Shown here: positions 24,416 to 43,100 of the stretch, piece after piece
Numbering within the stretch: the stretch's first letter is position 1
How the letters are laid out: every line of letters starts with the position of its first letter
Source: Felis catus
Taxonomy: Eukaryota
NCBI RefSeq assembly: GCF_018350175.1
Contig: NC_058368.1
Coordinates: 99,140,001-99,204,000, forward strand
Direction of reading: 5' to 3'
DNA: 64,000 bases
Notes under the pieces: generated by a model
What the model was told of the DNA's origin: nothing
What the model saw: only the letters and a program-made list of their open reading frames with translations
Databases searched by the model: none
Translations under genes and position numbers: made by a program

Positions 24416-24964
24416 TGTGTGTGTATGTGTATATATTTATATACACATATATACACATATGTATATGTGTATATATATACATATATGTACATATATACAC
24501 ATATATGTACATATATATGTACATATACTATATATGTACATATAACATATATGTATATTATGTATATATACATATAATATATGTATACATATATACGTAT
24601 ATATGTATATATATGTGTATATATTTATATACATATATATACACATAAGTATATGTATATATATGTACATATATGTACATATATATACATATATATGTAC
24701 ATATATACATATATGTACATATAATATATATACATATATACGTATATATGTACATATAATATATATGTACATATAACATATATGTATATATGTATATTAC
24801 GTATATATACATATAATACATATATGTATACATATATACGTATATATGTACATATAATATATGTGTACATATAACATATATGTATATATACATATATGTT
24901 ATATGTACACATGTTATATATATACATGTATATATTATATGTACATATATATGTATATATATAT
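24416..24964. repeat. Complex (TA)/(TACA)/(TATG) low-complexity repeat, ~550 bp
   Basis: Read directly; source of the spurious Y/I/M/C-rich ORFs. Confidence 0.97.
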
Positions 24965-25689
24965 AACTGGGGTTTATAAATTCCTGTAAGGCTCTCAATT
25001 TTTTTTTTTTTTTTTTTTGGAAAAAATGTGTACTCTTCCTTTGTGGTTCCATTCTTTCTGTATTCTAGGGATATTTTACTGTATTATATCTTGAATAACT
25101 GTCTGCTTTATTTGTTAACCTCTTTATAATTATGTATCATCATTTAGCCTTTTTATATCCATTGTCTTCTAGTTAATTACCTATTTCTCTCTTCCCTTTA
25201 CACTTAAGTCAAGATGCCAGTTTTTCAATTTAAAACCTTATTTCTTTCTGGTTCTCCTTTGTTTACTTACCCTGTTTTGACCTTGTTTAGAGTCTTTGCT
25301 TTTTCCTCAGCTCTGAATTCTCCATTTTTATATCTTTGCATTGACAATGACATCTTGTCTTAGAGCTCTCGTTTTATTAAATCTAGTTGTTTAAATTCTA
25401 CAGCATGGAGAAATCTCGTGTAATTCTTCTTCTGTTCCTTGGGTTATGTTTAATGTCCCACTTGGGGTTGTTCCTATATTTTGTCCTGCTTTGTTTTACT
25501 CAATAGATATCCACTGTTGGTGTGTCTTTTTTTCCCCTATTGCTCTTGTTTCATTTAGGGTTTGTATTCTTACCTCACTATATTTTACTTTAGGTGAATT
25601 TACTCTCACATGCTTTGTTTTTGTCTTTCTCTGATAGCTGAAATATTCATTCTCCCTGCCCTGGAAGAAAATGTCAAACCCCTCCCACC

Positions 25690-26363: not shown

Positions 26364-27835
26364 GTAAAGAATCTTCAGAACAATTCTTTCTCTTGGATCT
26401 AGACATAATCTGAGGCATTTTACTTTTGGGTGAAATTACTCTTTTTTTTTCTTCCAAAAAGTATTGACTGTTGAGTTCATAATTCTGCTTAGTAACTAGT
26501 CTGGTTAAGGAAGTACTTGTGATAATTTGATTGCATTATATTTTCTTTTTATCTCTGATCACATTCTTCCCTGTAGTCATATATTTTAAGGGGCATGACT
26601 TATACCCTTGGAAATTAATTCTGTCACATGTACCTATCATACTTTGCTTGCCCTTTCTTCTTGAGTTGGAAACTAAAGTAAACAAAAATTAGCGCTCCCT
26701 GCTGGTATATATAGTGCCATGAGTATCGCTCTTGTAATGACCTCTTTATGGAATGAAATTGTAGACTTGTGGAGTAAATGCTTATTTAATTTTACAAAAT
26801 ATTGACTAATTGTTCTTCACCATGGCTACATAAGTCATTTTAGATCATGAGGATTCCTTTTTTTACCCATATCTTTATAATCATTTTTTTACCAATTTTT
26901 TTACTATTTTTTTTACCAATATGATACATGTAAAATAGTATCTAATTTTTGTTTTGCTAACAAGGCTGAGCATTTCTTGATAAATGTGCCTGCCATTCAG
27001 TGGCTGTAAGAGGCTGAGCCCCTGGTGAGTGAGGGGAATGTGCAGAGGCAGTGCCTACTGGGACCAAAGAAGACAGAAGGAGGCCATAGATTATGGCCTG
27101 GTTTTAGTCCAGCTGCTGTGGTAGAAGTAAATACAGATTGTCCCTACGGGAGGGGGTGTATGCAGTGGTAGATGGGAGATAGGATGGAGCTAACCACAGA
27201 GTTCAAACCCTATACAGAGCCCCGCTCCTTCCAGAGGACATAGACTGGGGCCTGGAACAGTAGCCTGTAGAATGAGACCTTCATGCTTGAGGACAAGCTT
27301 CATTATGTCATCCAGGGAATGTAAATGTAATCCAAGGGCTTAACTTTCCCCAAATCTCTTGGGAAATAATTAGAAAAAAGAGTAGCAAAAGAGACAACGG
27401 CTTGTTGTCACAATACATAAGACTATTCCCGGGAGTGGGGAATGTCAATACATTTTAGGGTTGTATAGGATTATGAGATGTCCTCAACTGCATATGTATA
27501 TACCAACATATACCTTACATATAACCATTTCACATAAGTTAAATAGTACTGCTAATAAGATCTAATGTCAACTCTTTTCTACCATTCAGACCTAGTTCTC
27601 TCAGGTACGATTTTAATATCTTCTACATGGGGAGATTTAGTAATGCGGTTACTGTAGATACATAAAAGAATGTTCTTTGTTTGATCCAAGTCATGTCTAG
27701 TTTTGATATCAAGTGCAAAGTTCACAAATTCAAGCCACTGATGGGGTTTTCACTGGGGGGAAAGCAATTGCTCTAGTCAGTGGGTCATGGCACTCCTTCT
27801 GTCCTGTGAGTACCAGCTGTGTCCCTGGGGTGCAC

Positions 27836-28045
27836 TGATGTAACGCATAGGTCACAGAATTCTGATGCTGACTTGCATCATAATAGTCCTGATGGTGTAC
27901 TGAGCACTGGTCAAGACAGTGATTTAGTGAGGAGGTAACTTCTCAAGTGAGTTGTTGTTCTTGAATATACTGATTTGATTCTCTGTTATTTTCCACTGAC
28001 TCTCTGAGAGCAGAGTTTCAGGGAGAAAGGTATTGATTTGAGTCA
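27836..28045 (+). promoter_or_regulatory. Putative proximal promoter motifs of the FAM170A-like gene
   Basis: TGATGTAA (27836-27843), AGGTCA half-site (27849-27854), TTGCATCA ATF/CEBP-type site (27873-27880), TGAGTCA (28039-28045). Motif matches only. Confidence 0.25.
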
Positions 28046-28062
28046 CTCTGAAGAGGTGAACC

Positions 28063-28132
28063 ATGAAGCAGAAACAAAAAAGGAAACATCTGGAAAGTAT
28101 ATACTTTCCCGAAACTTCCAAGAAGTCAAGAG
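28063..28132 (+). CDS. FAM170A: FAM170A-like coding exon 1: MKQKQKRKHLESIYFPETSKKSR + 1 nt
   Basis: ACCATG with A at -3; in-frame TGA just upstream (28057-28059); donor AG|GTATGT at 28133. Resembles the recalled FAM170A N-terminus MKRRQKRKHLE. Confidence 0.88.
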
Positions 28133-30786
28133 GTATGTGTTAAGCATCTTCTCTGAGCATAGGATACCATGGAATTGCCTCTTAAAAAAAAAAAAAAAAA
28201 AAAAAGGAGAAGGGTACGTGGGTGGCTCAGTCAGTTAAATGTCCAACTCTTGATTTTGGCTCATGTCATGATCTCACAGTTCATGAGTTCAGGCCCCACA
28301 TTGGGCTCACTGCTGAGGCTTCTTGGGATTCTCTCCCTCTCCCTCTCTCTCAAAATAAATAAACTTAAAAAAATAGGGAGAGAATATCCCTAGCTGTGGC
28401 AAGGGAGAGGAGGAGGGATGGGTAGGAGAGGGATGTGTATATGCTGGTTTTTCTGAGGCCACAGGTCATCTGAGAGTAAAGAGAAAGTTCAAATGGCCAA
28501 GTCCTTGTCTCTGCAGCTTAAGATCTGTACTGTTTATACCTTGTCACTCACTGTGTCACAGGTGTAGTGGTTGAGTAGTACAGTTTTACTTAAAAAAATC
28601 GTATTTTCCTTTATTTGATTTTTGCCTAAGGGCATTGGGTAAGTATATGATGTTATTATGAGTCTTCTAATAGTCCTTTCTTCTGTTAATGAAGAAGAAA
28701 ATGTGGCTCATAAAAGTGAGAAAAAATTAACATTTAAAACTGGTTGTAGAGGGATGAGAATTTAAAGTCATAATTTATTCAGAAGCAAAAAAGAATTGTT
28801 TTCCTTCAGACTATGAAAATGTAAATGTGGGGCTCCTATGTGAAATGCAAGAAAAAGGCAGAATACACATACATACCACTGTTTAGCCGTAATGGTTGAA
28901 CTGAGGAGAAAGTTTGTGGTTTTCTCCTGAAAAAAAATGGGAAACTGAAATAATTCTGGTTACCATGGAGATTAACAGTAAACAAGTAACTTCTCTGAGG
29001 AAAGAAAGACCATTGTTCAAGGGAGTGGGGGTGGGGGACAGTTGAGAACCAACCCCAAAGTTCCAAGTGGCAGTTGTTACTCATGAAGAGAACTTGGCAC
29101 TTCCAACAGTGTTTGGGGTTTCTGGGGAGAGAGGGCTAGAAAGTGAGTCATGTCTACCTACAATAAAATGAGTGTATGTTGAGAGATGTTATTAAGTGTA
29201 AACTATGAGAGCTGTAAAATATGCACTCACAACCATGTGTTCACATATACACACATGTAGAATGTAAATAAGCCAGGAAAATGTAGATACTAATATCACA
29301 TATGCTTGGTATGTACTATGTACTATGTACTAGGTCCATTTATTTGCCCCTCAAGAACACGTTACATCTCTACTTTGGCCTTTGTAACTCATACACAAAC
29401 GCATCTATTTCTTACTTATTTAATAATTCAGGGTATATGAGGAGGAGTGGGTCAAGCCTCCTGGGCTGATGGAAACTTTGCTATCATTAACATGCAGTTT
29501 TCCAATAGACCCTGGGTTATCAACATGCTCATCAGCTAGAAAAGGAAAGAGCTCAGAGAGACACAGAGGAGGTCTTTATGATTCTGGTTGGAAGTGGCAC
29601 GTGCCATTTCCACTCATTTCTATTGTGAAAAACATAATCACGTGGTCAGAACTACCACAAGAGAAGTTGACAAATATAATTTAGTAGTATGTCCAGGTCG
29701 AAAGGAGACAGCTTATAGTCTCTGCTCCATTTACAAAGAGTGCCCTTATATAAACCCAACCAATCATGATATAAATACAATAGATGAGCTATATTTTGCT
29801 ATCCATGAAAATGGAGTCCATGTTTGTTCACAAAACATGTCACATGGTAGACTCTTCTTGTTTGTTTAATGGATGGATAAATGTACAAACAGCAAACGTG
29901 GACTACATCTCTATTATTTTCCTGTAATTTCTCAGCATATATGAATTTAAAAGTTCTGCATCATGGACACAAGGGAATGGCCCCAACTCAAGACCAGATA
30001 GCAAGGGGAGATTCTTCCTCTTCAGATTACTTCTCCTGCATCTCTTCAGAAAACATGTTTGCTGGTGCTGGTAAGGGGAGTGTATTGAATAAATTGGGAT
30101 CTAGGCTGAGGCCAGAGAGAAACTGGGTGATTTTGCCCATTAGTTGATACAAGGCTCCCTAGTACAGAAACAAACTCACAATGTGTCTTCATCTTCTTCC
30201 ATGATCAACTGTGGAAGCCATCAGTTGCAAGAGAAAAATACTTAAGAGGATTAGAATAAGCCCCAAAATATCAGTGGAGAGTGGTGTTTTATTTGAAGAA
30301 ATGGTGGGAGAGTGTTGGGTATGAGAATTTTACTAGAGAAATGTGGAAGAGAATGTCAGTATGAGCCAGCAAAGCATACATGTTATCAGGAAGGTGTGAA
30401 ATTACTCAAAGCTTGAAATGGACCAAAAGAGGTAGGATCCTTGAGATCTGGACTTGAGGTGGACTTCAGAGACATCCAGTCTAATACCCGTCCCTTTCAT
30501 GTATTTTTATAGCCAGTGTTCTCACACTTAATCACCATATACACTTTTTGCACTCCTTATTCCCATCATTCATTTCTTTATAATCTTCCATATGTGTCTA
30601 AATTCTCTATGCCATATTTTTGTCCCTACCATACAAACAGTGGTAATTTCTCTGACTTCTAGAACCCTAGATTAGTTATCCCTGGTTTTTTTTATTTCAT
30701 TTAAATAGTAGTACACAATTTATAGTTTGTGTCTGATTCCTTTAACTCATAATATCTGTGAAATTTATCTATGTTCTGTGTGTCAG

Positions 30787-30837
<51 letters not shown>

Positions 30838-33800
30838 TGTATATATACACACACAAACACATATTTTATGAATATAAATAATTTCTTTATTGATTATATT
30901 TTTCTGAGTATTTGGGTTGTTTTTAATATGGGGCTATTCTAAAAAAGTGATGTTTGAATATTCTATCACATGCATTTTGCTATCTGACATATTTCTGTTT
31001 GGAGAATGCTTGAGTTAAATTATTAGGTGGTAGTTTTCAGATTTTATCTTAATCCCTTAGACATGAGTCTTTTATGCCTTTATTATGCAGTCACATGTCA
31101 CTGTACACTTAACCTTCCACATCCTCCTCTATACCCCCATTTAATTTGGATCTTCACATAGTCTCAAAGCTCATATATTCTTTCTCTTACAATTTTGATT
31201 TTTACACCTTCTAATGTTCTTTCATTATTTCTTTAGATTTCACAAATCAACTAATTCTGTGAGTCTTAAAGAGAATATTCCTAATCATTACCTTATACAT
31301 CTGAATCATAACAGCATATACACACTCAAACATGTAATCGTGGGACATGCAATCTACACACATAGATATTAGCTGAACTGAAACAGACACGAAGCATACC
31401 TACTGTTCTCACTCACGCAAAATTCACCCCGTATTCAGATTCACAAACACCAAATCAATCATATATTAAGCATCAGTCCGGTCTTAAGCAACATGTTAGG
31501 AACTTATACACACAAATCACATTGCATCCATCACAACAGTTTGCTACAATATGTGCATTATACACATAGCAGACACATCCATAAGGGATGATCATCGTTT
31601 TTTTTTTTTTTTAATGTTTATTTATTTTAGAGAGACAGAGCACAAGTCAGGGAGAGGCAGAGAGAGAGGGAGACACAGAATTAGAAGTAGGCTCTAGGCT
31701 CTGAGCTGTTAGCACAGAACCTGATACAGGGCTCGAACTCACAAACTGTGAGATCATGACCTAAGCCGAAGTTGGATGCATAACTGACTGAGCCACCAAG
31801 ACGCCCCAGAGGAACGATCATAATCTTAAACTATTAGTGAGCAGTGAGCTTGGTTAACTTGGAAACAGAGACACTGGTATAATAATAAAAAATATGTTCT
31901 TCAAAAATAAAAATTCATCAATTGTTTCATTTGAGGTTATAAATCTCTAGGATGTTGAATGTGGAGGGTCAAAGAGTATCAAATGGAAAGCAAATGGTAC
32001 CAAAAATCCTCACCAGGGTGAATGGATATGAGGAGCCATAGTAGCAAGATCCAGATAGAAAAATGGAATGCTGAAGTACTGTTCAGGACAAAATAAGTAT
32101 TTCCCCAGGAGGGTGCTGGCAGTGAGGAGAGTAGGTTAGGGAGAAGACAGTAGGAGGGGAACAGAATGGAACCAACTATTTTTATGACTTTGATTTCATT
32201 TTCCAGGAATCCCAAAGTCACACAAATATGATCCACCACCTGAGTCTTCTTTGGAAGACAGTACTCTGGTCTCTGAGGCAAAAGATGGACACTCTGAATT
32301 GAAATACTTCTCCTGTAACTCCTCCTTTCACCATCACCCTTATGTTGGTAAGGAGAAAGAAAGGGCATTTAAAGGGTAGGCAGATCAGGGCAGTGGGAGC
32401 CTGAACAGACCTGTAGACGTCCAGCTCAGCATCTCTGCTCAGCCACTGGGGGAAAGGTGCACATTGGGTCCAGTTATCATATTCTCCTCCTCTCTTATTT
32501 GGGAGTCTAGGTCTCTGTTTCTGTACCCTCAATAGGAATTCATTATATATAAACACTTTTCACTCATAGGGGGTAGGAAGGTACTCTGTGCATTCATTTT
32601 GAGACAAACATCATTTATTGAGGGAAGAAGTAGAATCAAAGACACAGTATCCACAATTGCTGTGGTGTCCCTTAAGCCTACAAGTTAAGAATTAATATAA
32701 AATTAAACCATAGCTTGTAGCACTCTAGTAATACATGACCACAGAAAATATAAAAGAGCCCTGCATCATTAGTTATCTATGTTAAAGAGTCCTATAGGTA
32801 ATGAATTGCTGAACTTGAGCTCACAATCGAAAACTACAAAATATATACCTTCAAGGTAGATTCTGCAAACACCGTGAACACCAAGTTTTAGCTTCAAAGT
32901 TCACTTAATTTAATAGTGCTTTAGGGGTGGTAAATAATGTTTAAAACTATTAAAGATGTAAAAACTGAAAACACTACCAAGAAAAAAGATTTTTTAGAAA
33001 AGTGGTAGTTTTAGAAATGAGAAATTTTAACATTTTAGAAATTATAAAAAGTGTGGGATGAATTAAACATCACATTTGACACAAATGAAAAGAAAATGTG
33101 TGACCCAGAGGATATAGCCAAGGAATTACCTACAAATAGAAATCAGAGAGATAAATAGATGGGAAGTGTGAGAGAGAGATTACAATAAATGAGGACAAAA
33201 TGTGATAGTATGACATATCAAACTGAGGTTCATGAAGAGTAATATGAAGAAAGTAAGACAACATAAAGAGATAATGGTCAAGATTTTTTTCAGAAATGAT
33301 GGAAGATACAAATCCTTAGAATCAGGAAACATTATTAGGAAGCTGATCACAGGAAAGGCAAAAATAAATCCAAACCTGAGTATACTAAAACAAACATTCA
33401 CAACCTCAATAACAAAGACCTTAAAGCAACTAGAGAGAAGCACACAATACTTCAAAAGAACGGTGATTTGTCAGGCAGTGTACATCTCAGCAGCGATTGT
33501 CAACACTGGAAGACAGTGTAAAATTACATGCTGAAGGAAAAGAACAGTCATATCATAAAGAATAAGGATGAAATAAAGACATTCTTCAGGTAAAAAGAGT
33601 AAAAAATAAAATACAAAAAAGTTAAAAGCACAGAATCTATTCAGAAAGACGGAATGGAACACAGGAACAAAAGGTGAGCTGAGGAGTTGGTAAGTCTGTG
33701 ATTGAATGTAAATAGGCTTGATGATTAATACACCCAGACTGGTAATCATGAATTCAGAGATGGTCAACAAAACGGGTATACCTGAAGTATTAGATGATAG

Positions 33801-36800
33801 TCACATGTAACATGACTGGGAGTTCAAGTATTCGAAGCTGTGTATTTTGCACAGAGTGGGCAGCACCATTGACTCACATAAGCAACTCGCCCTCAGAAAA
33901 GAAAGGAAATTGGGTAAATAGAGCCTGCCCATTTTGAAAGCTCCCAGTGAATATGGAGGTCCTTAGTTTAAGGTAATTGTTATCAGCTATCAAATGCTAT
34001 AACATTATGACAAATCTAGTGGATTAAAGACAACAACACTTTATCCTGTTATTATAGAGGTCAGAAGTCTAAAATATGTCATATAGATCCACCCATCTAA
34101 TCCAAAATAATCTCTACTTCAAGGTCCTTAATTTAATAACATTTGTCAAGTCCCTTGGGCCTTATAAGGTAACATTACAGGTTCTGGGGATAGGTTATGG
34201 GCATCTTTGGCTAAGGTATTATTCAGCCTGTAACCACTAAAATGAAAATGTGTTACACGCAAAGACATGTGAATAGGTTAACAACAAAAATGAAAATGTG
34301 TTACACACAATGGCAGATGTAGAGTCAGGTAAACAAATATTAAAATATATTGACTACACTCTGTCATAGCACAGTTCCTGGACACACTGTAGGGGTCTCC
34401 ATGAAGACAATATATATATATCTACCTGACCATCAACACTTGGGAACATTTTTTTAAAAATTTTTGAATACTTATATTCTGGAGCTTTGGCCAGAAAAAA
34501 GACTCTATTCTCCATGCAGTATTCTCCATACGTGGGACACGTATGTCTGAGTTAGAAACCCAAATGAACTGAGTGTATGAATGATTGGATATATCTCTTT
34601 AATTTGGATGCACTTTAACAGAAATCTTAAACAAGCAAAAGGAAACTACACTGATTGGTCCTATTCCCAGGCACGAAGAAAACAATGTCATTTTCTCAAA
34701 CTGTTCATTCTCTGTCTCTGACAATAAGAATACTCGTAAGTAGAGATGTCTGGACTGGAGGTAGGGAGTGGCAGAGAAAGTAAGCACGGCGTTTGCTGTC
34801 TACAAACTGGTATCAGCTGATCCAAGTCTACGTCTGGACTACAGTGAGAGTGCAAGGTGTCTTCCCCCTTGGGGGATACTCATTTGCAGCCATATAAAAT
34901 AAAACTGAGAGATTCAAGGGAAATCTCAAAAAGGACAAATAGCCCAAAGTGCAAGGATATCAGAACAGAACCGTGTTTGCAAAGATGGAGGCTAAGGAAA
35001 TGTCAGACATCTCTGAGAAATGGCAAGATAAACTCAGTCTGAACCTGGGAAGATGAACTTGGTTGGTCATAATGTGGGCAGAGTTCTGACAACCAGTGTG
35101 AAATGGGCCAGCAAGGACCAGAGAGAGTAAGGAGGAACCACAGATTTTCCTTTTTTTCTTTGAGAGGAGTAAACTCCTTAGCATATGTCCTCTAATGGGT
35201 GAAGATGGGACAGAGATTTGAAAAGAATCCTTAAATTTTATCTCTAACAACCTCCTACCCCTGTAAACACACAGGAATCTTTATTCCATCACACCCACAA
35301 CTAGACTCATTACCGTGTGCCCTCACATTTACACGTATTAACACTCATCCTTTCATTCAGCGTTCTCTGCTCCCAATTGTTTACACTCCCAGACACTCTC
35401 ATAAGCTCAGATCCTCACATAGTAAACCTTCACGTCTCATTTTGCAGCATTTGTATTCTTCACGTTTGCTTTCTCTAACCTCATTCCTTAGATACTGTAA
35501 TCTCTAACTCACACAGATAATCTCACTCTTGTAGAACTTCGTATTGCACAGTAATGCATGCAGCCAACACAATCATATACCATCTTCTAAAACCTTTCTG
35601 TTCCTAATCCCTTGGGTTCCTCATGCAATTCCACAATCTGGGAGCTCATATGAGGTCTCCCATGTATCCTTCACATGGTTAGTCTTCCAACACTTTCTTG
35701 GTGTCACCAGATCTCACAGAATCACCCAGGTTCATATAGCCTGTCATAAACCAACAGATATTATGTAACTACTTGAACTTCAATAGTATATGACACACAG
35801 ATCACTCATGATACAGGGAAGATGTACTGGCTGTACCTATACAGAATTATGGTGCGTATCACCCAACACATCATACTCAACGCCACCTTCACATTCAATG
35901 TCTGTGTCACCCCTATACTGTCTACATAAAATTATTGAAGAAACCTGACAGACACATGCACACATCAGACTACTCATCAAATCTGGTACACATACGAACT
36001 CTCTGAAAGATACACCACCTCCACTGACTTGTCTCATCCTTACACCAACATGACCTACCAGTCATCCAAGAGACAAAATAGATGTATTTTGTGAAGTGAA
36101 AATTGGGGTCCAGGCTTAACTGAAGTTTTTAAACATAAGAGACTTAATCCTGAGTTACTTTATCAGGAACAAAAATTCACCTATTACTGGAAGTCCACGG
36201 AAATGTAGGAGGAAGGAAAACAAACTGGCGATTTCCATGATGTGTTTAAAGTCATGGTAGAGATAGAGGTGATCCAAGAAATATGCATATTTTAGTAGGA
36301 AAATAACCAACAACCTAGAATTTACCTGTAGATTGGGAAGATTTAAAGGTAGGGTATGAGTTTGGTAAGTATAGGTGCAAAAATTGATCAGAACAATGTG
36401 TGGGGAATGTGAGAAAAGTGACACCAGTGACAGGGCCAAATGAAGGCTGAACCATTTAGCAGTCAGTAGCTGTTGACAGGGGAGCTGTGTCCATTGTTGA
36501 GAGGTGTGGTCTGAAGTCCACCTTGGGGTTCTTACTGGAGTCTCCAGGTCCTGCATTGCATACCTGTTCAGCAGGGCCCTCATGTGAGGTTCCACAAGAG
36601 TAGATAAACTGGAAGGGGAGGATAAGGACCAGCAGTGGAAGTCAGTCAATTCTTTCCTGTAAATTCTAAACCTACCATGAAGCAGCAGGACTTATATATC
36701 ATAAACCACAACTGTCCAACTGAGACCTTTACCTTATCATGTACCTGGAAAGAATTTGAGCTCAGATACACTCCAGAAAACAACATAGGGTACTCATAGT

Positions 36801-39800
36801 TCATCAGATACTTCATTCCAACAAATACTTTTATATACCTTGATTTTAGGACTTTGAAAAGAAACTAGACTATAATCTTCATGAAGATAAGTGCCATGTG
36901 TGTGATTCTATGTGGTATTTCTTGAATGTTTATGGAGGCAAAAAAATATCTGATTTTCCTTCTCTTCCCCAGAGGTCTTAAAATCAGGTGAAGACTCTTC
37001 ACATTCTGGACCCTCTAGGTTGGTCCAGTTCCACAACCAGATGGCAAAGGTTTCAGGCTCAGAACAGATCTTCGGTGTCCCTTCTCCAGACAGGCCCATT
37101 CACAGTGGTATGTGATGGGGGAGAGGAGGGGCTGAGGGGGATTCAGGCATGGTGGTGAGGCAGCGTGTTAGTCAAAAATTAGAATTGAGCTCTTTTGCTC
37201 AGCAATGTCCATAGATGACCTCTTCTCTCAAGGACTGCCCAGGGTCTCTGTTTATAATTGTTAGGCAGAATATACCATTTCAGCATCCCTGTCTTCTTTG
37301 GAAGAAGCCCTTAATGGATCTGAGTGGGAAGATTAAAAATCTAAGAGAAATGTAGAAATACATTTCCAGAAGAGGAGTCTGTGAAGTCTTAATTTGACCA
37401 TCTCCAGCACCAGAGTTCCGAGGGAATCTTGAAAATCGATTTTATCTGTATATATACATATCTTTGTATCTATGTTTCTCTCTTTCTCCCTCCCTCCCTC
37501 TCTCTGTCTCTCTCTCTCCATCCATCCATCCATCCATCATCTATCCATCCTCATTATATGTGTGTGTAGATAGATACATATCCATATGTAAGTAGATGTA
37601 GATGCAGAGGTCTTCATACAGCTTGTACCCCACATTCCCTAATTACACAATTTCCCATGAGGAAAATCAAGCTATTAATATCCAACTTAAGTGACTGCAT
37701 ACTGTTTTCCAGGAATGGTTCTTTCTAAGTGTTCAGTATTCTCTACACATCTCCAGAAATATCACATACAAGGTACTAAATATCATGGGTATCCACCATA
37801 AACACAATTTTAATAATTATTATTTACTTATATCTTAGAGTAAGTGAAGTTTTCAAAGGCCAACGCACCTTAAAGTTTTTGGGTTTCAAATGAGAAAGTC
37901 ACCTTCATTTTAATGAGAGCAAGTCTCACGTTTGGTAATGATGTGTGGCTTCTAATGTCCACTCAATGCGTGTCTTTTGAATTGACAAACTCTGGAAAAT
38001 GCCACGTCTCAATGTTTTGTTTGGTTTTGTTTGTTTTTATGACTCCACAAAATGCCACCTCAATGTTTTGGGTTTTTTGTGTGTTTCTTCGTGTTTATTC
38101 CATTCTCCAGAAGTCACGAAAGGTCAAGAGGATGTCCCTCCTGCTGAGTCATGTGTAGTGGTCCCTGCCTGCAATCAGGCAGCAGAAGAAAAGTCCTCTG
38201 TCTCAGAATACTTTTCCTGTGTTTCCTCTGTACGCAAGCTCGTTCCTGTTGATGAGTGTGGTAAGAAAAACAAACAGGTGGGGTCTGAGTATGGAGAGGA
38301 GGTAAAACTGAGCTGCTTGGCCCAAGCCCTACTTATTTAGTCTCCCCTCAAAAGCAGAAAAGTGTTTCAGGGCGGAGGCATTGGGCTGAAGCCTCTGCAG
38401 AGGAACAAAGAGAGTCAGTGTCCCTTCAAAGATAAGACACAGCTCCTCATATGAACACTGGGATGGGTCATGTAGAGCGCAGTGCTGGTGTGGGCAGTTC
38501 ATCGGAACCTTCTCCCTCAGAGGAGCATGAATTCATATGCTCACACACACTCACTCATCTGTATTCCTTCCTACCAGGTATGGTGCCATTTCTCCTTCCT
38601 TTTACTTTTTTTTTTTTTTTCAACGTTTATTTATTTTTGGGACAGAGAGAGACAGAGCATGAACGGGGGAGGGGCAGAGAGAGAGGGAGACACAGGATCG
38701 GAAACAGGCTCCAGGCTCTGAGCCATCAGCGCAGAGCCCGACGCGGGGCTCGAACTCACGGGCCGCGAGATCGTGACCTGGCTGAAGTCGGACACTTAAC
38801 CGACTGCGCCACCCAGGCGCCCCTCCTTTTACTTTTTCTACCAAACTTACCTGCCTTCATTCCTCATTAACCTTCCTGTGTTCTAGTTACATGGTGTAGG
38901 TATGCCCCGGTACCTTCATTCCGACTCACCCACTTACACACTAATCCCCTAAGTAATTTATGTTGCCTCACACAGATAACTTGTTTTAACTCCCTCATGC
39001 TAAGCCAAACTGCAGAAAATTCATAGACCCTGGAGGGAATGCACTTTCATATACTGCCTTTCTAATCTATATGCCACTTGACCCACAAAGACTTCGGCCC
39101 CTCATGGAGCCACACATTCTGAGAGCTCAGGTCACTTCTGCTAACACTCGATGTCATATCGACTCGCAGCAAGAATAGGCAACGCTCCTGCACTTGTTTA
39201 CATTTAACGCACATGCGCACATTCATCCACCGTCACCTTTTACCAGTATCGAAAACACTCACCAGAGATGTCCCCAAACACACGTACAACTCCGCTAGAC
39301 ACACCACACCCTCATTTCCCCAGTTATACCAGGTGCACCTCAAGTAAAACATACCATTCCCAGAATTCTGCAGTGTAACATGTACATACGCTTCTGCTTC
39401 ACATTTCCACATAGGAATATTCTCCTGGCCATATTAAGTCCTCCAGACATCACATACTTATTCTACTTATTTTATGTTTGGAATTTTCTTTCCTAGGAAT
39501 CCATCAGTTACATCAAGGTGTTTCTTGTCTTCGATACCAGTTGGAGACTTCCTCCCCCTTTCCACACGTCTCCTTCCCATTCCATTTGGTCAGTGATACT
39601 AAGTCCTCTTTTACCTCAGAAGACACGAAAGAGGAAAGGCTCATGAAAATTTACTATATGCGTGTCCAGATGAAAAGGGGAGTGGCTGCCTTATGTGACA
39701 CAGAGGAAGGACTGGAGCCTCCCTCAAAGAAGACAAGAATGGAAGAAATGACCTTTCTTGAAAAGAGCCCTACAGAAGCCACCCTCTCTTATGTGGGTAC

Positions 39801-40185
39801 GAAGGAACTCCTGACTGACAGTGAGTCAAGCTGGAACAACGAAGACCAAGGGGAACAGGAGGAGGTTGAGAGTCCAGCAGAACCTCCAGCTGTAGATGAG
39901 TGTTCCAGGGCCAAGACGCCCGAATGGCTGGTGTCCCAGGATAGTGGTGTCAGGTGCATGGGCTGCTGCCGGGTCTTCCCCACCTTAGAAGTCCTCCAGC
40001 AGCACGTGCAGCATGGGATCAGTGAGGGCTTTAGCTGCCGTACTTTCCATCTTACCTTGACTTGGCTGAAGAGCAAGAAGAGCAGGATAGAGAAGAAGAG
40101 GAGGAGGAAGAGGGAGAAAGTCAGGAAGATAATGTTCCAATGCCAGAAAGGAAAGCATTTTGGCATGAAATCTTCACACAAATAA
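28063..40185 (+). CDS. FAM170A: FAM170A-family (ZNFD-like) C2H2 zinc-finger gene. Predicted join(28063..28132,29936..30070,32207..32347,34622..34735,36973..37107,38111..38260,39497..40185), 1434 nt, 477 aa. Orthologue versus paralogue unresolved.
   Basis: All introns are GT-AG and phase 1, and the joined frame has no internal stop. MKQKQKRKHLE, SEYFSCVSS, KEERLMKIYYMRVQMKRGVA and RAKTPEWLV...RCMGCCRVFPTLEVLQQHVQHGISEGFSCRTFHL match my recollection of FAM170A motifs. Confidence 0.85.
28212..28374 (+). mobile_element. Short Can-SINE in intron 1
   Basis: gggtggctcagtcagttaa...ctctctctcaaaataaataaactt-A. Confidence 0.88.
29420..29730. mobile_element. Ancient MLT1 (J/K-like) LTR fragment
   Basis: ggaagtggcacgtgccatttccactcatttctattg...aatcacgtggtc...aaatataatttagtagtatgtccagg. 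Confidence 0.55.
29936..30070 (+). CDS. Exon-2-like repeat exon A (135 nt): (A)YMNLKVLHHGHKGMAPTQDQIARGDSSSSDYFSCISSENMFAGA
   Basis: Acceptor ttttcctgtaatttctcag, donor G|GTAAGG, phase 1-1, open frame, SDYFSCISS motif. Confidence 0.78.
30787..30860. repeat. (TA)n(CA)n microsatellite
   Basis: Read directly. Confidence 0.9.
31598..31807 (-). mobile_element. Can-SINE
   Basis: polyT, gagagacagag..., ends gagccaccaagacgcccc. Confidence 0.95.
32207..32347 (+). CDS. Exon-2-like repeat exon B (141 nt): (G)IPKSHKYDPPPESSLEDSTLVSEAKDGHSELKYFSCNSSFHHHPYV
   Basis: Acceptor tttgatttcattttccag, donor G|GTAAGG, phase 1-1, open frame, YFSCNSS motif. Confidence 0.8.
33000..33600 (+). mobile_element. Highly degraded L1 ORF1-region fragment
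   Basis: A-rich; gacc ttaaagcaactagagaga and ggatgaaataaagacattcttcag resemble old L1 ORF1. Confidence 0.5.
33975..34235. mobile_element. MLT1 LTR fragment
   Basis: tgctataacattatgacaaatctagtggattaaagacaaca...gaggtcagaagtctaaaat...ataaggtaacattacaggttctggggatagg. Confidence 0.7.
34622..34735 (+). CDS. Candidate repeat exon C (114 nt), the most diverged: (E)ILNKQKETTLIGPIPRHEENNVIFSNCSFSVSDNKNT
   Basis: Weaker acceptor (gcactttaacag), consensus donor C|GTAAGT, phase 1-1, open frame, sits on the ~2.3-2.4 kb periodic spacing. Peptide similarity is weak. Confidence 0.55.
36973..37107 (+). CDS. Exon-2-like repeat exon D (135 nt): (Q/E)VLKSGEDSSHSGPSRLVQFHNQMAKVSGSEQIFGVPSPDRPIHS
   Basis: Strong acceptor ttttccttctcttccccag, donor G|GTATGT, phase 1-1. 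KS.ED...G..R and terminal IHS resemble recalled FAM170A exon 2 (KSQED...GSTR...LIHSG). Confidence 0.78.
38111..38260 (+). CDS. FAM170A: Exon-2-like exon E (150 nt): (E)VTKGQEDVPPAESCVVVPACNQAAEEKSSVSEYFSCVSSVRKLVPVDEC
   Basis: Acceptor tttattccattctccag, donor G|GTAAGA, phase 1-1. SEYFSCVSSVRKL is the closest match to recalled SEYCSCVSSSRKL. Confidence 0.88.
38611..38823 (-). mobile_element. Young felid-type Can-SINE (SINEC_Fc-like) in the last intron
   Basis: CpG-rich, near consensus; perfect 14-bp TSD tccttttacttttt at 38597-38610 and 38824-38837. Confidence 0.97.
39497..40185 (+). CDS. FAM170A: FAM170A-like large last coding exon: FAM170 conserved region, acidic stretch, C2H2 finger (39955-40014), basic tail, stop TAA 40183-40185
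   Basis: Lies in the longest ORF of the window (39478-40185). Acceptor ttttctttcctag|GA ATC CAT. Finger CMGCCRVFPTLEVLQQHVQH = C-x2-C-x12-H-x2-H spacing. Confidence 0.93.
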
Positions 40186-40186
40186 A
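40181..40186 (+). terminator. AATAAA overlapping the stop codon; possible polyadenylation signal
   Basis: CAC AAA TAA A: the hexamer contains the TAA stop. Whether it is used is unknown. Confidence 0.3.
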
Positions 40187-43100
40187 CAGACTGTTTTTCA
40201 GCCCCTAAGAGGAAGTAGAGTAGGCCTTACTCTACTGAGGGGGCTTCATCTTCTCTAAACAGCCCTAATACCCACTGTTGTTTATTTACACCCACCCCCA
40301 CCCTCACCACTATCACACACCACCCATAGGAGCAGAGACCCATTTTCACTTTTACCCACTCCTCTCCCAAGAAGGAGGAAGAAGAAGGGAGGTCACACCT
40401 TGCGGAACAGCAAGATGTTCTTGAGCCAACGAAAGAACAGTGAACACCAGTATATCATCGCCACCATTACAGTTGAGAAAAAAAAGACTCACTGGAAGGT
40501 GGCAACTGCTAGGGGCCAAATTGTAGAAGAGGTGAGGGCCCTTGGGGTAAGAGAGCACCTCAAGGGTATTTGGGATTCAGGGTTCTGAGAAAAGGTGGCA
40601 GCCAGCAGAGATGCCTCCCGAGGTTCTCCAGTAACTGTGATGATGAATTTCCTTCAGAAGAATATAGACTTGAAAGTGGAATTAATTAGTGAGAATGCTT
40701 CCTTTTTATGTCTTTTGAGGAGACAGGAGTAAAGACAGACCAGTCTGGTAGTTCAGTAGGTCAGACAAGCCTGGGCCCATCATTCCTAGGTAAACCAAAT
40801 GTCTTGGGAGTCACATCCACCCTAAATATATTCCTGGGCCTGCCTCCCTTTCAAGAGGCACAGGGCTTAGCAGGGACAAATATTGTCTCCTAGAGGAAGG
40901 GTTGGTACACAGGCCAGTCTCCCTAGGTGTGAGTGAGATCTCAGGTGTCATATTGTGAGTTGCATACCTTGAGGAATCTGCTGGGGAGTTACAACCACTT
41001 GAGAGAAACAACCAATGGAATCCTTTTTTTGTTGTTTTGTTGTTGCTGTTTTACCTCTTTGGTATATACTATTTGCCTGTAGTTCTGGTTGCTTTCTCTC
41101 AAGTGTCAGATGCAACTGGAGGAGGAGAGGGATTGAGGGTACCCTTCTGCCAAGGATCCTTTCTGGAAGCTTTTAATGTGTTGCTTCCTGGAGGATCCTC
41201 ATATTCTTTTATGAAAGTGCACAGTCCCCACATCTTATTCTTTATTTTTGCTGCAGTATCAAGTGCCTTGTTCTAAGGGATCTATAGAGGGGTTAAACAT
41301 AGATGAAACTACAAAGACATTGCAAAGCCAGCTTCACACTACAACGAATGGGTGTATGTCTTTTTAGTTAATGGGACGAAGGAAGGGCTCATTTTCCATG
41401 CTCCAGAAATCAGTTAGACTGTAGCCTGGGAATGGCCCCAAATTTTCTGAATAATGTAGAGTGAGTGAGGACTTATCACTAAAATAAGAAAAGCTGCCTT
41501 CCTCACTGAAGGGACCCTCTTCTCTGTTTTGGTTTTCTCACAGCAACAGAGACCTATGGCCCAAAGATTTCAAGTGATGGTATCCAGTACCTTCCTACAG
41601 TCTGATGGGAGCACAAAAGTTCTCGTGAGCCCCATAGCAGGGAGGGCTAGCTGTAGATGGATGTCCCTGATCCTTTGCAGCTGCTCCCAAGTTACCCTGG
41701 TAAAATGTGGTGCCCGTGTCTGGAGAAAATATCCACATGGACCTGTGAGGAGCCCGAGGAACACCAGGAATACTGTGCACTCAGGAGATCTGCAAGACAA
41801 CTTTCCTGCCCCTGCCAGCCCACCTCACCCCTCCAGGAGTCCGATGCCATTGCAGACATCTGCAAGGTTGCCTTGTGGAGAAGAGGGCGATATCCCTAGA
41901 GAAATCGTAGTACTGTGGAAAGCACATTTCTCATACCTAGACCTTTCACCGGTGCAACAGAAGGTTGATGAGGACTTGGCAGGACTCCAGGGAGGAGATT
42001 GCTAACTTAACAGAAGGTTTAAAAGGATATGTCAGTTTCTTTCCCAGTCTCAGATCTACTTGTAGCTTCTCAGGTCCCTTTCATTTAGTGGAGGCTTGAC
42101 CACCTGGCTTGTAGTCTTATTCTCTAGCCCAGCTGTCGCTCTTCAACCCACCAAATGTATTCCCCTCCTCCATACCTTCTATCCAGAATACATGTAGCAG
42201 AGCATGAACACTGACGGATACAGATGGTACAGATTGTCATCCATACCTTTTCACCCACGCATTCCCACCAACATAGTCTTTGTTAACAACTTGACTTATT
42301 TTTCGATATCTTTTTCTTTAAACGCACATATACCTTTCCCCTACCTTTCTCTAACATGCTCACCCACACAGTTATTTGCCTGGGGAGCCATTCTTATCAT
42401 TGAGACAGGAAAAGCTAGTGTACAGACGAAACCAAAAGTAAAGAAAACCCACTCCTTGGCTTTCATGAGCTCGTGCACGTGTAGGTGTACACACACTTCT
42501 TACATGATCAAAGTAGGAAGGATGGAACGTATGACAAACATCAGAGACGATCAAGTATATGTACCCAAGGGTGTCCCAAAAGTCATAGCGCACTTTCAAG
42601 CTTAATCATTTTAGAAACCTAAAAGCTACCAATTTTTGAACAATATAATTTGCATGTTGAATTATTTGCATGCCACTTAACACTGTAATAATACATTTTC
42701 AAAGATAAATTGTAATTTTTCTTTGTCATCTGCCATCTTCAGTCAGAGGGACAGATACACACAAAAAATGTTTTTAAAGCATTAGTGACAGTTCACAAAG
42801 CTATATAAGGGAAATTAAAATAGTTCAACTTTCAGATGGTGGTGTTTATAATTTGTAGCTTTTGCAGTTCTGGTATTACTAAAGCTTAAAACTGACCTAT
42901 GGCATTTGGGACACCTATATGTATATATACAGTATATCCAGGTGTGTGTAATATATATACAGATACACATCTCTTCTATATATATGTATATGTCATATAT
43001 ATATATGATTATCTTGAAACTATTTTTATGTCTATTGCCCCTATGGATATGTACATATAAGAAGTGTGTGTGTACCCGTGTGTCATAGAAGGGGTGGATT

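Follow-up and report, generated by a model that had tools for sequence, protein, structure and literature searches.

Tandem module exons in a felid FAM170A-like gene: four copies spliced into mRNA and a fifth segment skipped in the transcripts seen

The window analysed here, a stretch of 64,000 nucleotides of Felis catus DNA, carries a gene in which five short segments (A to E) lie between exon 1 and an exon encoding a zinc finger. The locus raises the question of whether these segments are working exons, whether they derive from one another, and to which gene they belong. The earlier note had read them as a tandem array of exon-2-like exons in a FAM170A-family gene. As described there, each is bounded by AG and GT, has a length divisible by 3, is phase 1-1 and is open in the frame set by exon 1, which comprises 23 codons plus 1 base and so ends in phase 1. 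With the coordinates of all five confirmed, the distances between their starts follow (2271, 2415, 2351 and 1138 bp). The start of the last exon was corrected to 39497 by a spliced joint, giving the following layout.

28063..28132, + strand: exon 1, coding part; ATG at 28063, in frame; joints 28132 to 29936 and 28132 to 32207
29936..30070, + strand: module exon A; 135 nt; SDYFSCISS; joints exon 1 to A and A to B; profile i-Evalue 2.7e-18 (profile seed)
32207..32347, + strand: module exon B; 141 nt; LKYFSCNSS; joints exon 1 to B and B to D; profile i-Evalue 3.4e-19 (profile seed)
34622..34735, + strand: segment C; 114 nt; open frame with AG/GT borders; felid counterpart of a canid and pinniped exon; skipped in the transcripts seen
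36973..37107, + strand: module exon D; 135 nt; joints B to D and D to E; profile i-Evalue 4.1e-6
38111..38260, + strand: module exon E; 150 nt; SEYFSCVSS; joints D to E and E to last exon; profile i-Evalue 5.5e-24 (profile seed)
39497..40185, + strand: last exon, coding part; joint 38260 to 39497; contigs over 39496-40531 in runs X4, X5 and X11

Upstream of the ATG, the 5′ UTR extends to at least 27922, where an X11 contig spanning 27922-28130 begins. Exon 1 ends at a gtatgt donor and agrees with four felid models at 22 of its 23 residues. In the last exon, the reading frame covers a beta-hairpin region (MKIYYMRVQ...), a C2H2 zinc finger and a helical tail of basic character, and it closes with a TAA stop codon at 40183-40185; the 3′ UTR reaches at least 40531.

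Segments of this general appearance are not rare. When the interval 28133-39496 was scanned for AG..GT segments of 105-165 nt with a length divisible by 3 and an open phase-1 frame, 119 segments in 25 separate blocks were recovered, leaving 20 blocks besides A to E within 11.4 kb. Since 20 other blocks pass, these bare properties are by themselves no evidence, and the case must be carried by similarity and RNA. The abundance of such blocks is what would favour reading A to E as chance open frames in an mRNA that joins exon 1 straight to E or to the zinc-finger exon. In the spliced contigs, however, the borders of A, B, D and E are exactly those predicted, and orthologs of these four are annotated exons in at least 10 mammals. 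Their profile E-values, moreover, run from 4e-6 to 5e-24, with those of A, B and E partly circular because these three seeded the profile. For A, B, D and E the spliced joints rule out chance frames, and we regard this account of the locus as scarcely credible.

The spliced contigs come from three runs (X4, X5 and X11) belonging to three studies with two organism labels. Their RNA label is a guess; we took them as RNA from their spliced joints and from contig totals of 84-633 million letters. Among the joints listed for these runs, GT..AG joints link exon 1 with A, exon 1 with B, B with D, D with E and E with the last exon in all three, and A with B in X4 and X5. A single X4 contig of 1490 nt reads from B through D and E into the last exon. 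A, B, D and E are genuine spliced exons. The joint from exon 1 to B shows splicing past A, which makes A a cassette exon, present in a 439-aa form and missing from a 394-aa form; both spliced frames are without internal stops. The junctions anticipated in the earlier note were thus recovered between exon 1 and A, A and B, D and E, and E and the last exon, but, among the joints listed, not at C; a direct splice from 28132 to 38111 that skips A to D, the outcome set against the proposal, is contradicted by contigs that include A, B and D. A further run, X15, resembles exon-capture DNA, its contigs consisting of exons with their flanks and carrying no splice joints, and it adds nothing on splicing.

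Similarity among the segments, which had been claimed for the set, was judged against mononucleotide shuffles (1000 for peptides, 300 for DNA) and proved to hold for part of it. The A-E peptide score (z = 10.9) was reached by none of 1000 shuffles. B and E were alike both as peptides (z = 6.9, 0/1000) and as DNA (z = 14.1, 0/300), with blastn aligning them at 60% over 166 nt (E 3.5e-5); the A-B peptide score was lower (z = 3.1, 17/1000), and D-E was significant at the DNA level only (z = 4.2, 0/300). No pair containing C was significant, the best being C-E as DNA (z = 2.6, 9/300). These comparisons show the mutual similarity of the seeds separately from the profile. After iteration the module profile recovers A, B, D and E, and none of the reversed-sequence decoys falls below 0.1; the i-Evalue listed for D was obtained with a profile free of felid D sequence and fell to 7e-13 after further rounds. 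By profile and pairwise comparison, A, B, D and E are one family of a 44-aa module.

The most conserved positions of the profile are S29, E30, Y31, F32, S33, C34, S36 and S37, and the motif variants that the earlier note had picked out are present in A, B and E as listed above. D reads VLKSGED...IHS, again as reported, and its motif has decayed in the cat to SEQIFGVPSP, where a fur seal module of the same class has SEYFSCVSS. E is the closest of the five to the single module of canonical FAM170A: residues 25-68 of badger FAM170A match 38113-38244 (tblastn, E 2.3e-7). Against Pfam, the five module peptides matched no family at E <= 1.

Internal tandem exon duplication is a general route to repeat proteins, and the array resembles other products of that route in its symmetric phase 1-1 exons of similar length, each holding one repeat unit, and in a copy number that varies among lineages. 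It differs in that its units are short, apparently disordered modules built round one linear motif rather than folded domains. The further proposal that flanking intron was amplified along with the exons, in units of about 2.3 kb, was not borne out. In a blastn self-comparison of 27000-42000 (word size 7) there was no intron similarity left, and the matches consisted of three SINE-to-SINE pairs and the B-E exon match and nothing else. With a SINE at about 31598-31807 sitting between A and B, the even spacing of the exons is at least partly coincidence, and the module classes appear old enough for their introns to keep no similarity. No Rfam family matched anywhere in the window at gathering thresholds.

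Segment C required separate consideration. Splicing all five segments would yield 477 aa without an internal stop, and the earlier note had proposed such a five-module protein. If C were a working coding exon of the cat, this isoform might be produced in small amounts or during a single stage of sperm development. C does keep AG/GT at the same borders, an open phase-1 frame and the length of the dog exon (37 full codons), and its identity to dog C (17/37) and fur seal C (15/34) approximates that of the expressed exon D (19/40 and 20/44). Against this, the joint from B to D (32347 to 36973) is present in all three RNA-like runs, and none of the joints listed for X4, X5 and X11 starts or ends at C, in contigs that drop rare isoforms; C is covered solely by an unspliced X5 contig spanning 32318-37001. 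It is likewise absent from the six full-length feliform models read through B to D (Panthera uncia, Acinonyx, Prionailurus viverrinus, Neofelis, P. bengalensis and hyena). A search of 5.8 billion proteins with the felid C peptide (40-aa reference) returned 5 candidates, none at E <= 10, in a search where long proteins can crowd out relatives. The splice signals of C are the weaker ones: the polypyrimidine tract is the poorest, with 9 pyrimidines in the 16 positions -20..-5, and the donor carries C rather than G at position -1. As the 25 blocks show, AG/GT open frames of 38 codons are common by chance in this interval. We therefore consider a working C exon in the cat unlikely, and the 477-aa five-module protein is not supported.

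What C is by origin is a different matter. Dog C matches window C at an i-Evalue of 1.7e-5 (phmmer, Z=150), and C is the cat counterpart of a caniform exon, probably on its way out of use. It might have begun as an unrelated stretch of intron, exonised in early carnivores or in caniforms only, with the array proper consisting of four homologous modules. Its distribution fits such an origin: C-type exons give 39 matches among 75 proteins, confined to canids, otariids and one phocid, and models of armadillo, pig, hyena and cat have none. So do its scores against the module profile, with i-Evalues of 7.4 for window C (hmmsearch) and 0.67 for dog C, the latter over profile positions 3-12 only, and no significant pair with another segment. 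On the other hand, a profile of C aligned to the module profile with hhalign is collinear over 30 columns, at module positions 2-37 (P 0.0026, probability 11.5%), and C shares the phase and approximate length of its neighbours and sits inside the array at about their spacing. An intronic origin is accordingly a real possibility, although we would not put it first. The old tandem amplification suggested in the earlier note stands for A, B, D and E, on profile and tree; window C gives no significant hmmsearch match to the module profile.

The attribution to the FAM170A family was upheld, while an identity with canonical FAM170A was not. The last-exon peptide matches PF17734 (Spt46) at 52.2 bits (cut-off 29.5; E 9.6e-14; query residues 98-150), a family present in nearly every database match, and zinc-finger residues C365, C368 and H381 are invariant in a 25-sequence alignment. 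The basic N-terminus that sets the FAM170A group apart from FAM170B is present in exon 1, whose peptide begins MKQKQKRKH. In place of the single module exon and acidic C-terminal tail of canonical orthologs, the window gene combines four expressed modules with a basic tail. These characters go together in a set of 60 proteins that carry the canonical N-terminus: all 8 acidic-tail proteins have one module and all 42 basic-tail proteins have 2-8, most commonly 4, the remaining 10 being without the zinc-finger end pattern or having a short tail. Sequence comparison thus identifies the window gene as the basic-tailed FAM170A-like paralog and not as canonical FAM170A. The basic tail was also considered as a frameshifted form of the acidic canonical tail, and this was rejected, with no BLASTP alignment at E <= 100 under composition correction. 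The window's other frame at 40035-40208 is acidic, and its uncorrected tblastn matches are weak (E 0.019).

Canonical FAM170A (ZNFD; 329 aa in Meles meles) has in common with the window gene the basic N-terminus, an E-like module, the beta-hairpin region and the C2H2 finger. Both fall within PF17734, and they are 52% identical over 169 residues (E 2e-52), but similarity stops just past the finger. The predicted FAM170A-like proteins of other cats, in contrast, represent the same gene, collinear as exon 1-(A)-B-D-E-last exon and all without C. The 439-aa Panthera uncia model is identical to the window's spliced frame at 415 of 438 aligned residues (43 of 44 in A). Acinonyx jubatus and Prionailurus viverrinus isoform X2 models have 394 aa and that of Neofelis nebulosa 392 aa, and the window's 394-aa form is identical at 384 of 394 residues, the few differences being those expected of another species. 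The concern that annotation could miss B, C and D was therefore misplaced, as B and D appear with A and E in these models and C is annotated in canids and pinnipeds.

Caniform FAM170A-like proteins likewise belong to the same paralog, with a basic tail and module classes in the same order as in the window; unlike the cat models, they carry C as an annotated coding exon. Callorhinus ursinus isoform X2 (476 aa) is collinear with exon 1, A, B, C, D, E and the last exon, and Canis lupus models reach 635 aa with six class-B modules. Between the window and caniforms, the modules are 44-65% identical and the last exon 68-69%, from which any constraint on the modules, such as the purifying selection suggested in the earlier note, looks confined to frame, splice sites and a short motif.

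Copy number ranges from 1 to 9 modules per protein over all 75 proteins of a longer search: 2 in pig and lemur, 4 in cats, seals and armadillo, and 8 in dog. In a module tree built from 44 columns, in which 19 of 43 inner branches are open and class E forms no resolved clade, classes B (99/99), A (99/89) and D (94/94) are supported. Each of A, B and D holds cat, hyena, fur seal and armadillo sequences, and class A also holds Myotis. As these classes unite carnivores with armadillo, the array would be older than the placental radiation. Individual lineages have since amplified particular modules, the tree showing five class-D copies in tamandua and the six class-B copies in dog; the stoat carries four modules identical to one another, which branch next to fur seal m4 and dog m8 and in none of the classes A, B and D. 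On this comparative sequence evidence, the multi-module state is the norm for FAM170A-like across placental mammals and no peculiarity of felids.

Taken together, these results lead us to a reading that we hold with high confidence. The locus would be the felid member of FAM170A-like, a long-established placental paralog of FAM170A, the nuclear zinc-finger protein of spermatids. Its small phase 1-1 exons, each encoding one module of about 44 residues, would have arisen by tandem exon duplication before the placental orders split and precede a last exon carrying the zinc finger and basic tail. Classes A, B, D and E would each be orthologous across orders (class E without a resolved clade in the tree), with single classes amplified later in individual lineages. 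The cat mRNA would run exon 1-(A)-B-D-E-last exon, giving 439 or 394 aa by use of cassette A and leaving C out, and the modules may constitute an array of motifs.

As to how such an array might act, pLDDT in an AlphaFold2 model of the Panthera uncia protein (439 aa) is 51 over residues 1-10 and 29-39 over residues 11-250, the latter without secondary structure, and the model is confident for the zinc finger (pLDDT about 87-90) and a helix at 392-430. The module region is thus predicted to be disordered around a conserved S-E-Y-F-S-C-x-S-S core. It may serve as a multivalent array of this serine-rich short linear motif, bound or phosphorylated by partners, and valency would then be set by the number of exons and by cassette splicing. 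By analogy with mouse FAM170A, a canonical protein with a single module, candidate partners are casein kinase 1 alpha and USP7. In the published accounts, mouse FAM170A is nuclear and testis-specific, carries an NLS predicted in silico within its first eight residues (PMC7401401), directly binds Usp7 and Csnk1a1 (PMC11760970), and is required for normal fertility of male mice (PMC7401401, PMC11760970). The basic stretch of exon 1 sits where that predicted nuclear localisation signal lies. These functional data (testis-specific and nuclear, a subfertile or infertile knockout, and binding of Usp7 and Csnk1a1) belong to canonical FAM170A and not to the window paralog, and cat D has lost most of the motif, so that not every module can act through it.

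The repeat is real, is already contained in public gene models, is undescribed in the papers searched, none of which contained the name FAM170A-like, and is largely ordinary. In practice, the gene is to be read as FAM170A-like, with A, B, D and E as real exons and A as a cassette, and C should enter the cat protein only with read-level evidence. The paralog differs from FAM170A mainly in how many copies of one short disordered module it has and in tail charge. In its wider bearing the finding is modest and involves no new kind of biology; a described repeat family with lineage-specific bursts of copy number would be a small new item for the evolution of reproductive proteins. We tentatively entertain, as something a little short of probable, a stronger reading: an ancient paralog, undescribed in the papers searched and apparently missing from the usual model species, with a disordered-motif array that underwent repeated copy-number jumps in separate lineages and a segment C that is intact but leaving use in the cat-hyena branch. 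If true, the family would serve as a natural test series for how the valency of a motif tunes a chromatin-remodelling factor of spermatids, perhaps under sexual selection.

The window is mammalian and carnivore-like, with its nearest proteins in a protein search coming from cats (89–97% identity), and its gene runs from a short coding exon 1 through five exon-like segments, A to E, to a zinc-finger last exon.

Coding features of the gene in the window
28063–28132, + strand: exon 1, coding, from the ATG at 28063; starts MKQKQKRKH, phase-1 end, donor gtatgt
29936–30070, + strand: segment A
32207–32347, + strand: segment B
34622–34735, + strand: segment C
36973–37107, + strand: segment D
38111–38260, + strand: segment E
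39497–40185, + strand: last coding exon, start set by the splice joint, TAA at 40183–40185

All five segments have AG before and GT after, a length divisible by 3 and an open phase-1 frame. This confirms the observation in the earlier note, which had placed them at the same coordinates with the same borders, phase and frames, and whose spacings and quoted motifs are correct. The last exon matches Pfam PF17734 (Spt46/FAM170) at 52.2 bits (cut-off 29.5), and the gene belongs to the basic-tailed, FAM170A-like branch of the FAM170/Spt46 family. A long TA/CA-rich simple repeat at 24558–25083 contains spurious minus-strand open frames of 152–168 codons.

Taken alone, the bare exon-like criteria yield no more than chance, because 119 segments in 25 separate blocks between 28133 and 39496 combine AG..GT borders, 105–165 nt, divisibility by 3 and an open phase-1 frame; 20 blocks other than A to E thus satisfy them. 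Pairwise similarity of the segments was judged against mononucleotide shuffles (1000 for peptides, 300 for DNA). The A–E peptides gave z = 10.9 and the B–E peptides z = 6.9 (0/1000 shuffles as good in each case), B–E DNA gave z = 14.1 (0/300), and the A–B peptides gave z = 3.1 (17/1000). D and E were similar at the DNA level only (z = 4.2, 0/300), and no pair with C was significant in this test, the best being C–E DNA (z = 2.6, 9/300). Apart from SINE pairs, self-blastn of 27000–42000 returned just the match between exons B and E (60%, 166 nt, E 3.5e-5), with no intron similarity left. Three carnivore-type SINE copies lie in the introns of the gene (28195–28351, 31598–31807 and 38607–38837), with 67–78% mutual identity and very high contig depth in all runs. 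Since one of them sits between A and B, the even 2.3-kb exon spacing is partly accidental.

Splicing was read from contigs of four coded public sequencing runs (X4, X5, X11 and X15) placed on 27900–40700. X4, X5 and X11 come from three studies with two organism labels, their RNA status being guessed, and their contigs show GT..AG joints exactly at the predicted exon borders.

Splice joints in contigs of X4, X5 and X11
28132 to 29936, + strand: exon 1 to A (X4, X5, X11)
28132 to 32207, + strand: exon 1 to B (X4, X5, X11)
30070 to 32207, + strand: A to B (X4, X5)
32347 to 36973, + strand: B to D (X4, X5, X11)
37107 to 38111, + strand: D to E (X4, X5, X11)
38260 to 39497, + strand: E to last exon (X4, X5, X11)

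A single X4 contig of 1490 nt joins B, D, E and the last exon and continues to 40531. Segments A, B, D and E are spliced, expressed exons with the borders predicted for them. Among the joints listed here from X4, X5 and X11 contigs, beside which there are 46 further joints, none touches C, which is covered solely by an unspliced 4.7-kb X5 contig; contigs lose rare isoforms, which limits the evidence of the joints. X15 has contigs over A, B, D and the last exon with 60–150 bases of flank and no splice joints, a pattern that looks like exon-capture DNA; it has no exon-plus-flank contig at C or E, and depth in their bins is 0 or <1.

A query with the last exon retrieved 142 proteins, 75 of them longer and 67 of about the same length; almost all are named FAM170A or FAM170A-like. 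The 439-aa Panthera uncia model consists of exon 1, A, B, D, E and the last exon, and the 392–394-aa models of Acinonyx, Prionailurus and Neofelis are without A. The spliced frames of the window encode 439 and 394 aa, are free of internal stops, and match these felid models at 415/438 and 384/394 aligned residues. Splicing all five segments would also give a stop-free product, of 477 aa. The interpretation in the earlier note is partly supported: as far as A, B, D and E are concerned, the array is real, old and expressed. Its 477-aa five-module protein is not supported, since the transcripts seen skip C and the feliform models read lack it. Nor is its suggestion that annotation could miss B, C and D, because A, B, D and E are already included in predicted proteins of felid sister species, and C in caniform models.

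C was found in none of the feliform models read across the B-to-D region, hyena included, and its peptide, widened to 40 aa, retrieved no protein at E ≤ 10 in a protein database search. A random stretch of intron is nevertheless ruled out by its match to the dog C-type exon (phmmer i-Evalue 1.7e-5, Z = 150). Canid, otariid and phocid members of the 75 contain the C-type exon at 39 places in all, and fur seal isoform X2 (476 aa) is collinear with exon 1, A, B, C, D, E and the last exon of the window. C is identical to its counterparts at 17/37 residues in dog and 15/34 in fur seal, about the level of the expressed module D (19/40 and 20/44). Of the five segments C has the poorest splice signals, with 9/16 pyrimidines at −20 to −5 versus 12–15 in the others, and it alone is missing the G at donor position −1. 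Against the module profile described below, C scores an i-Evalue of 7.4, and a profile of C aligns collinearly with it (P 0.0026, probability 11.5%). C, which the transcripts seen leave out, is a possible decayed module.

A profile that took A, B and E as seeds and was refined by iteration over the 75 proteins, reversed sequences serving as decoys, converged on a 44-residue module whose strongest positions are S29, E30, Y31, F32, S33, C34, S36 and S37; no decoy fell below 0.1. D of the window matched at 4.1e-6 with a model lacking any felid D sequence. Modules were found in 75/75 proteins, 1–9 in each. For the 60/142 proteins with a canonical N-terminus, an acidic tail accompanied one module in 8/8 and a basic tail 2–8 modules in 42/42, most often 4; in the remaining 10/60 the zinc-finger end pattern was missing or the tail short. 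Canonical FAM170A has one module and an acidic tail; the window gene, in contrast, has four expressed modules and a basic tail, and on this account is not canonical FAM170A. No felid protein among the 142 members has the canonical architecture, which mustelid, cetacean and rodent proteins do have; cats may lack canonical FAM170A, or a word-based search may have missed it.

In a tree of 49 modules from 14 species, built on 44 columns only and with 19/43 inner branches open, cat, hyena, fur seal and armadillo modules fall together within class B (support 99/99), class A (99/89) and class D (94/94). The class E modules form a grade that the tree leaves unresolved, and the one module of canonical FAM170A falls among them. 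Since carnivores and armadillo share classes, the module amplification predates the split of Xenarthra from other placentals; it is no felid event, and lineage-specific bursts came later. Such bursts of single classes include six class-B copies in dog (P0021), five near-identical class-D copies in tamandua (P0047) and four identical stoat modules, which cluster with fur seal m4 and dog m8; the Mustela proteins concerned are P0064 and P0059, and P0067, from the bat Eptesicus, and P0055 have 8–9 modules. Assembly or gene prediction may have lowered or raised some of these copy numbers.

Within the last exon, the first ~40 residues (39497–39620; ..SSPFPHVSFPFHLVSDTKSSFTSED..) align with ..SSPSSYKTCVSS.. 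of canonical FAM170A, a part that matches the module profile weakly (i-Evalue 0.011). The start of this exon may be what is left of an additional module that became fused to it. At 40035–40208 (+), a shifted frame of the exon is acidic (..EEQEEQDREEEEEEEGESQEDN..FW..RLFF); it had no BLASTP match to canonical badger FAM170A. The end of the predicted hyena protein P0050 closely resembles it, so hyena uses this alternative frame for its tail, owing either to a true frameshift or to an indel in the assembly.

Duplicating symmetric exons in tandem is a well-known way for repeat proteins to arise. Databases already contain the structure, four of the exons in predicted proteins of sister species and C in caniform models. 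Searches for 'FAM170A-like' and for 'FAM170A' with 'exon duplication' found no paper, the FAM170A literature being covered in part; as regards module-like features, the portions of PMC7401401 consulted mention only low-complexity regions for FAM170A. The array, known in kind and undescribed in print as far as searched, is therefore of modest interest.

The 439-aa snow-leopard protein was modelled with AlphaFold2 from a 25-sequence alignment; the model is confident at a beta-hairpin, at the zinc finger and at a long C-terminal helix. Residues 1–10 have pLDDT 51, and residues 11–250 have pLDDT 29–39 and no secondary structure, so that disorder is predicted for the module region, in which each module has a single conserved serine-rich core. 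Mouse FAM170A is described as testis-specific and nuclear, with an in-silico NLS within the first eight residues; males without the protein are subfertile or infertile (PMC7401401). Usp7 and Csnk1a1 are direct binding partners of mouse FAM170A (PMC11760970). We suggest that the modules could present a short linear motif in a multivalent array, which partners such as Usp7 and Csnk1a1 might bind or phosphorylate, and whose valency would depend on how many exons there are and on whether cassette exon A is spliced in. Most of the motif core is lost in cat module D, so the long form of the cat protein would keep three intact motifs and the short form two.
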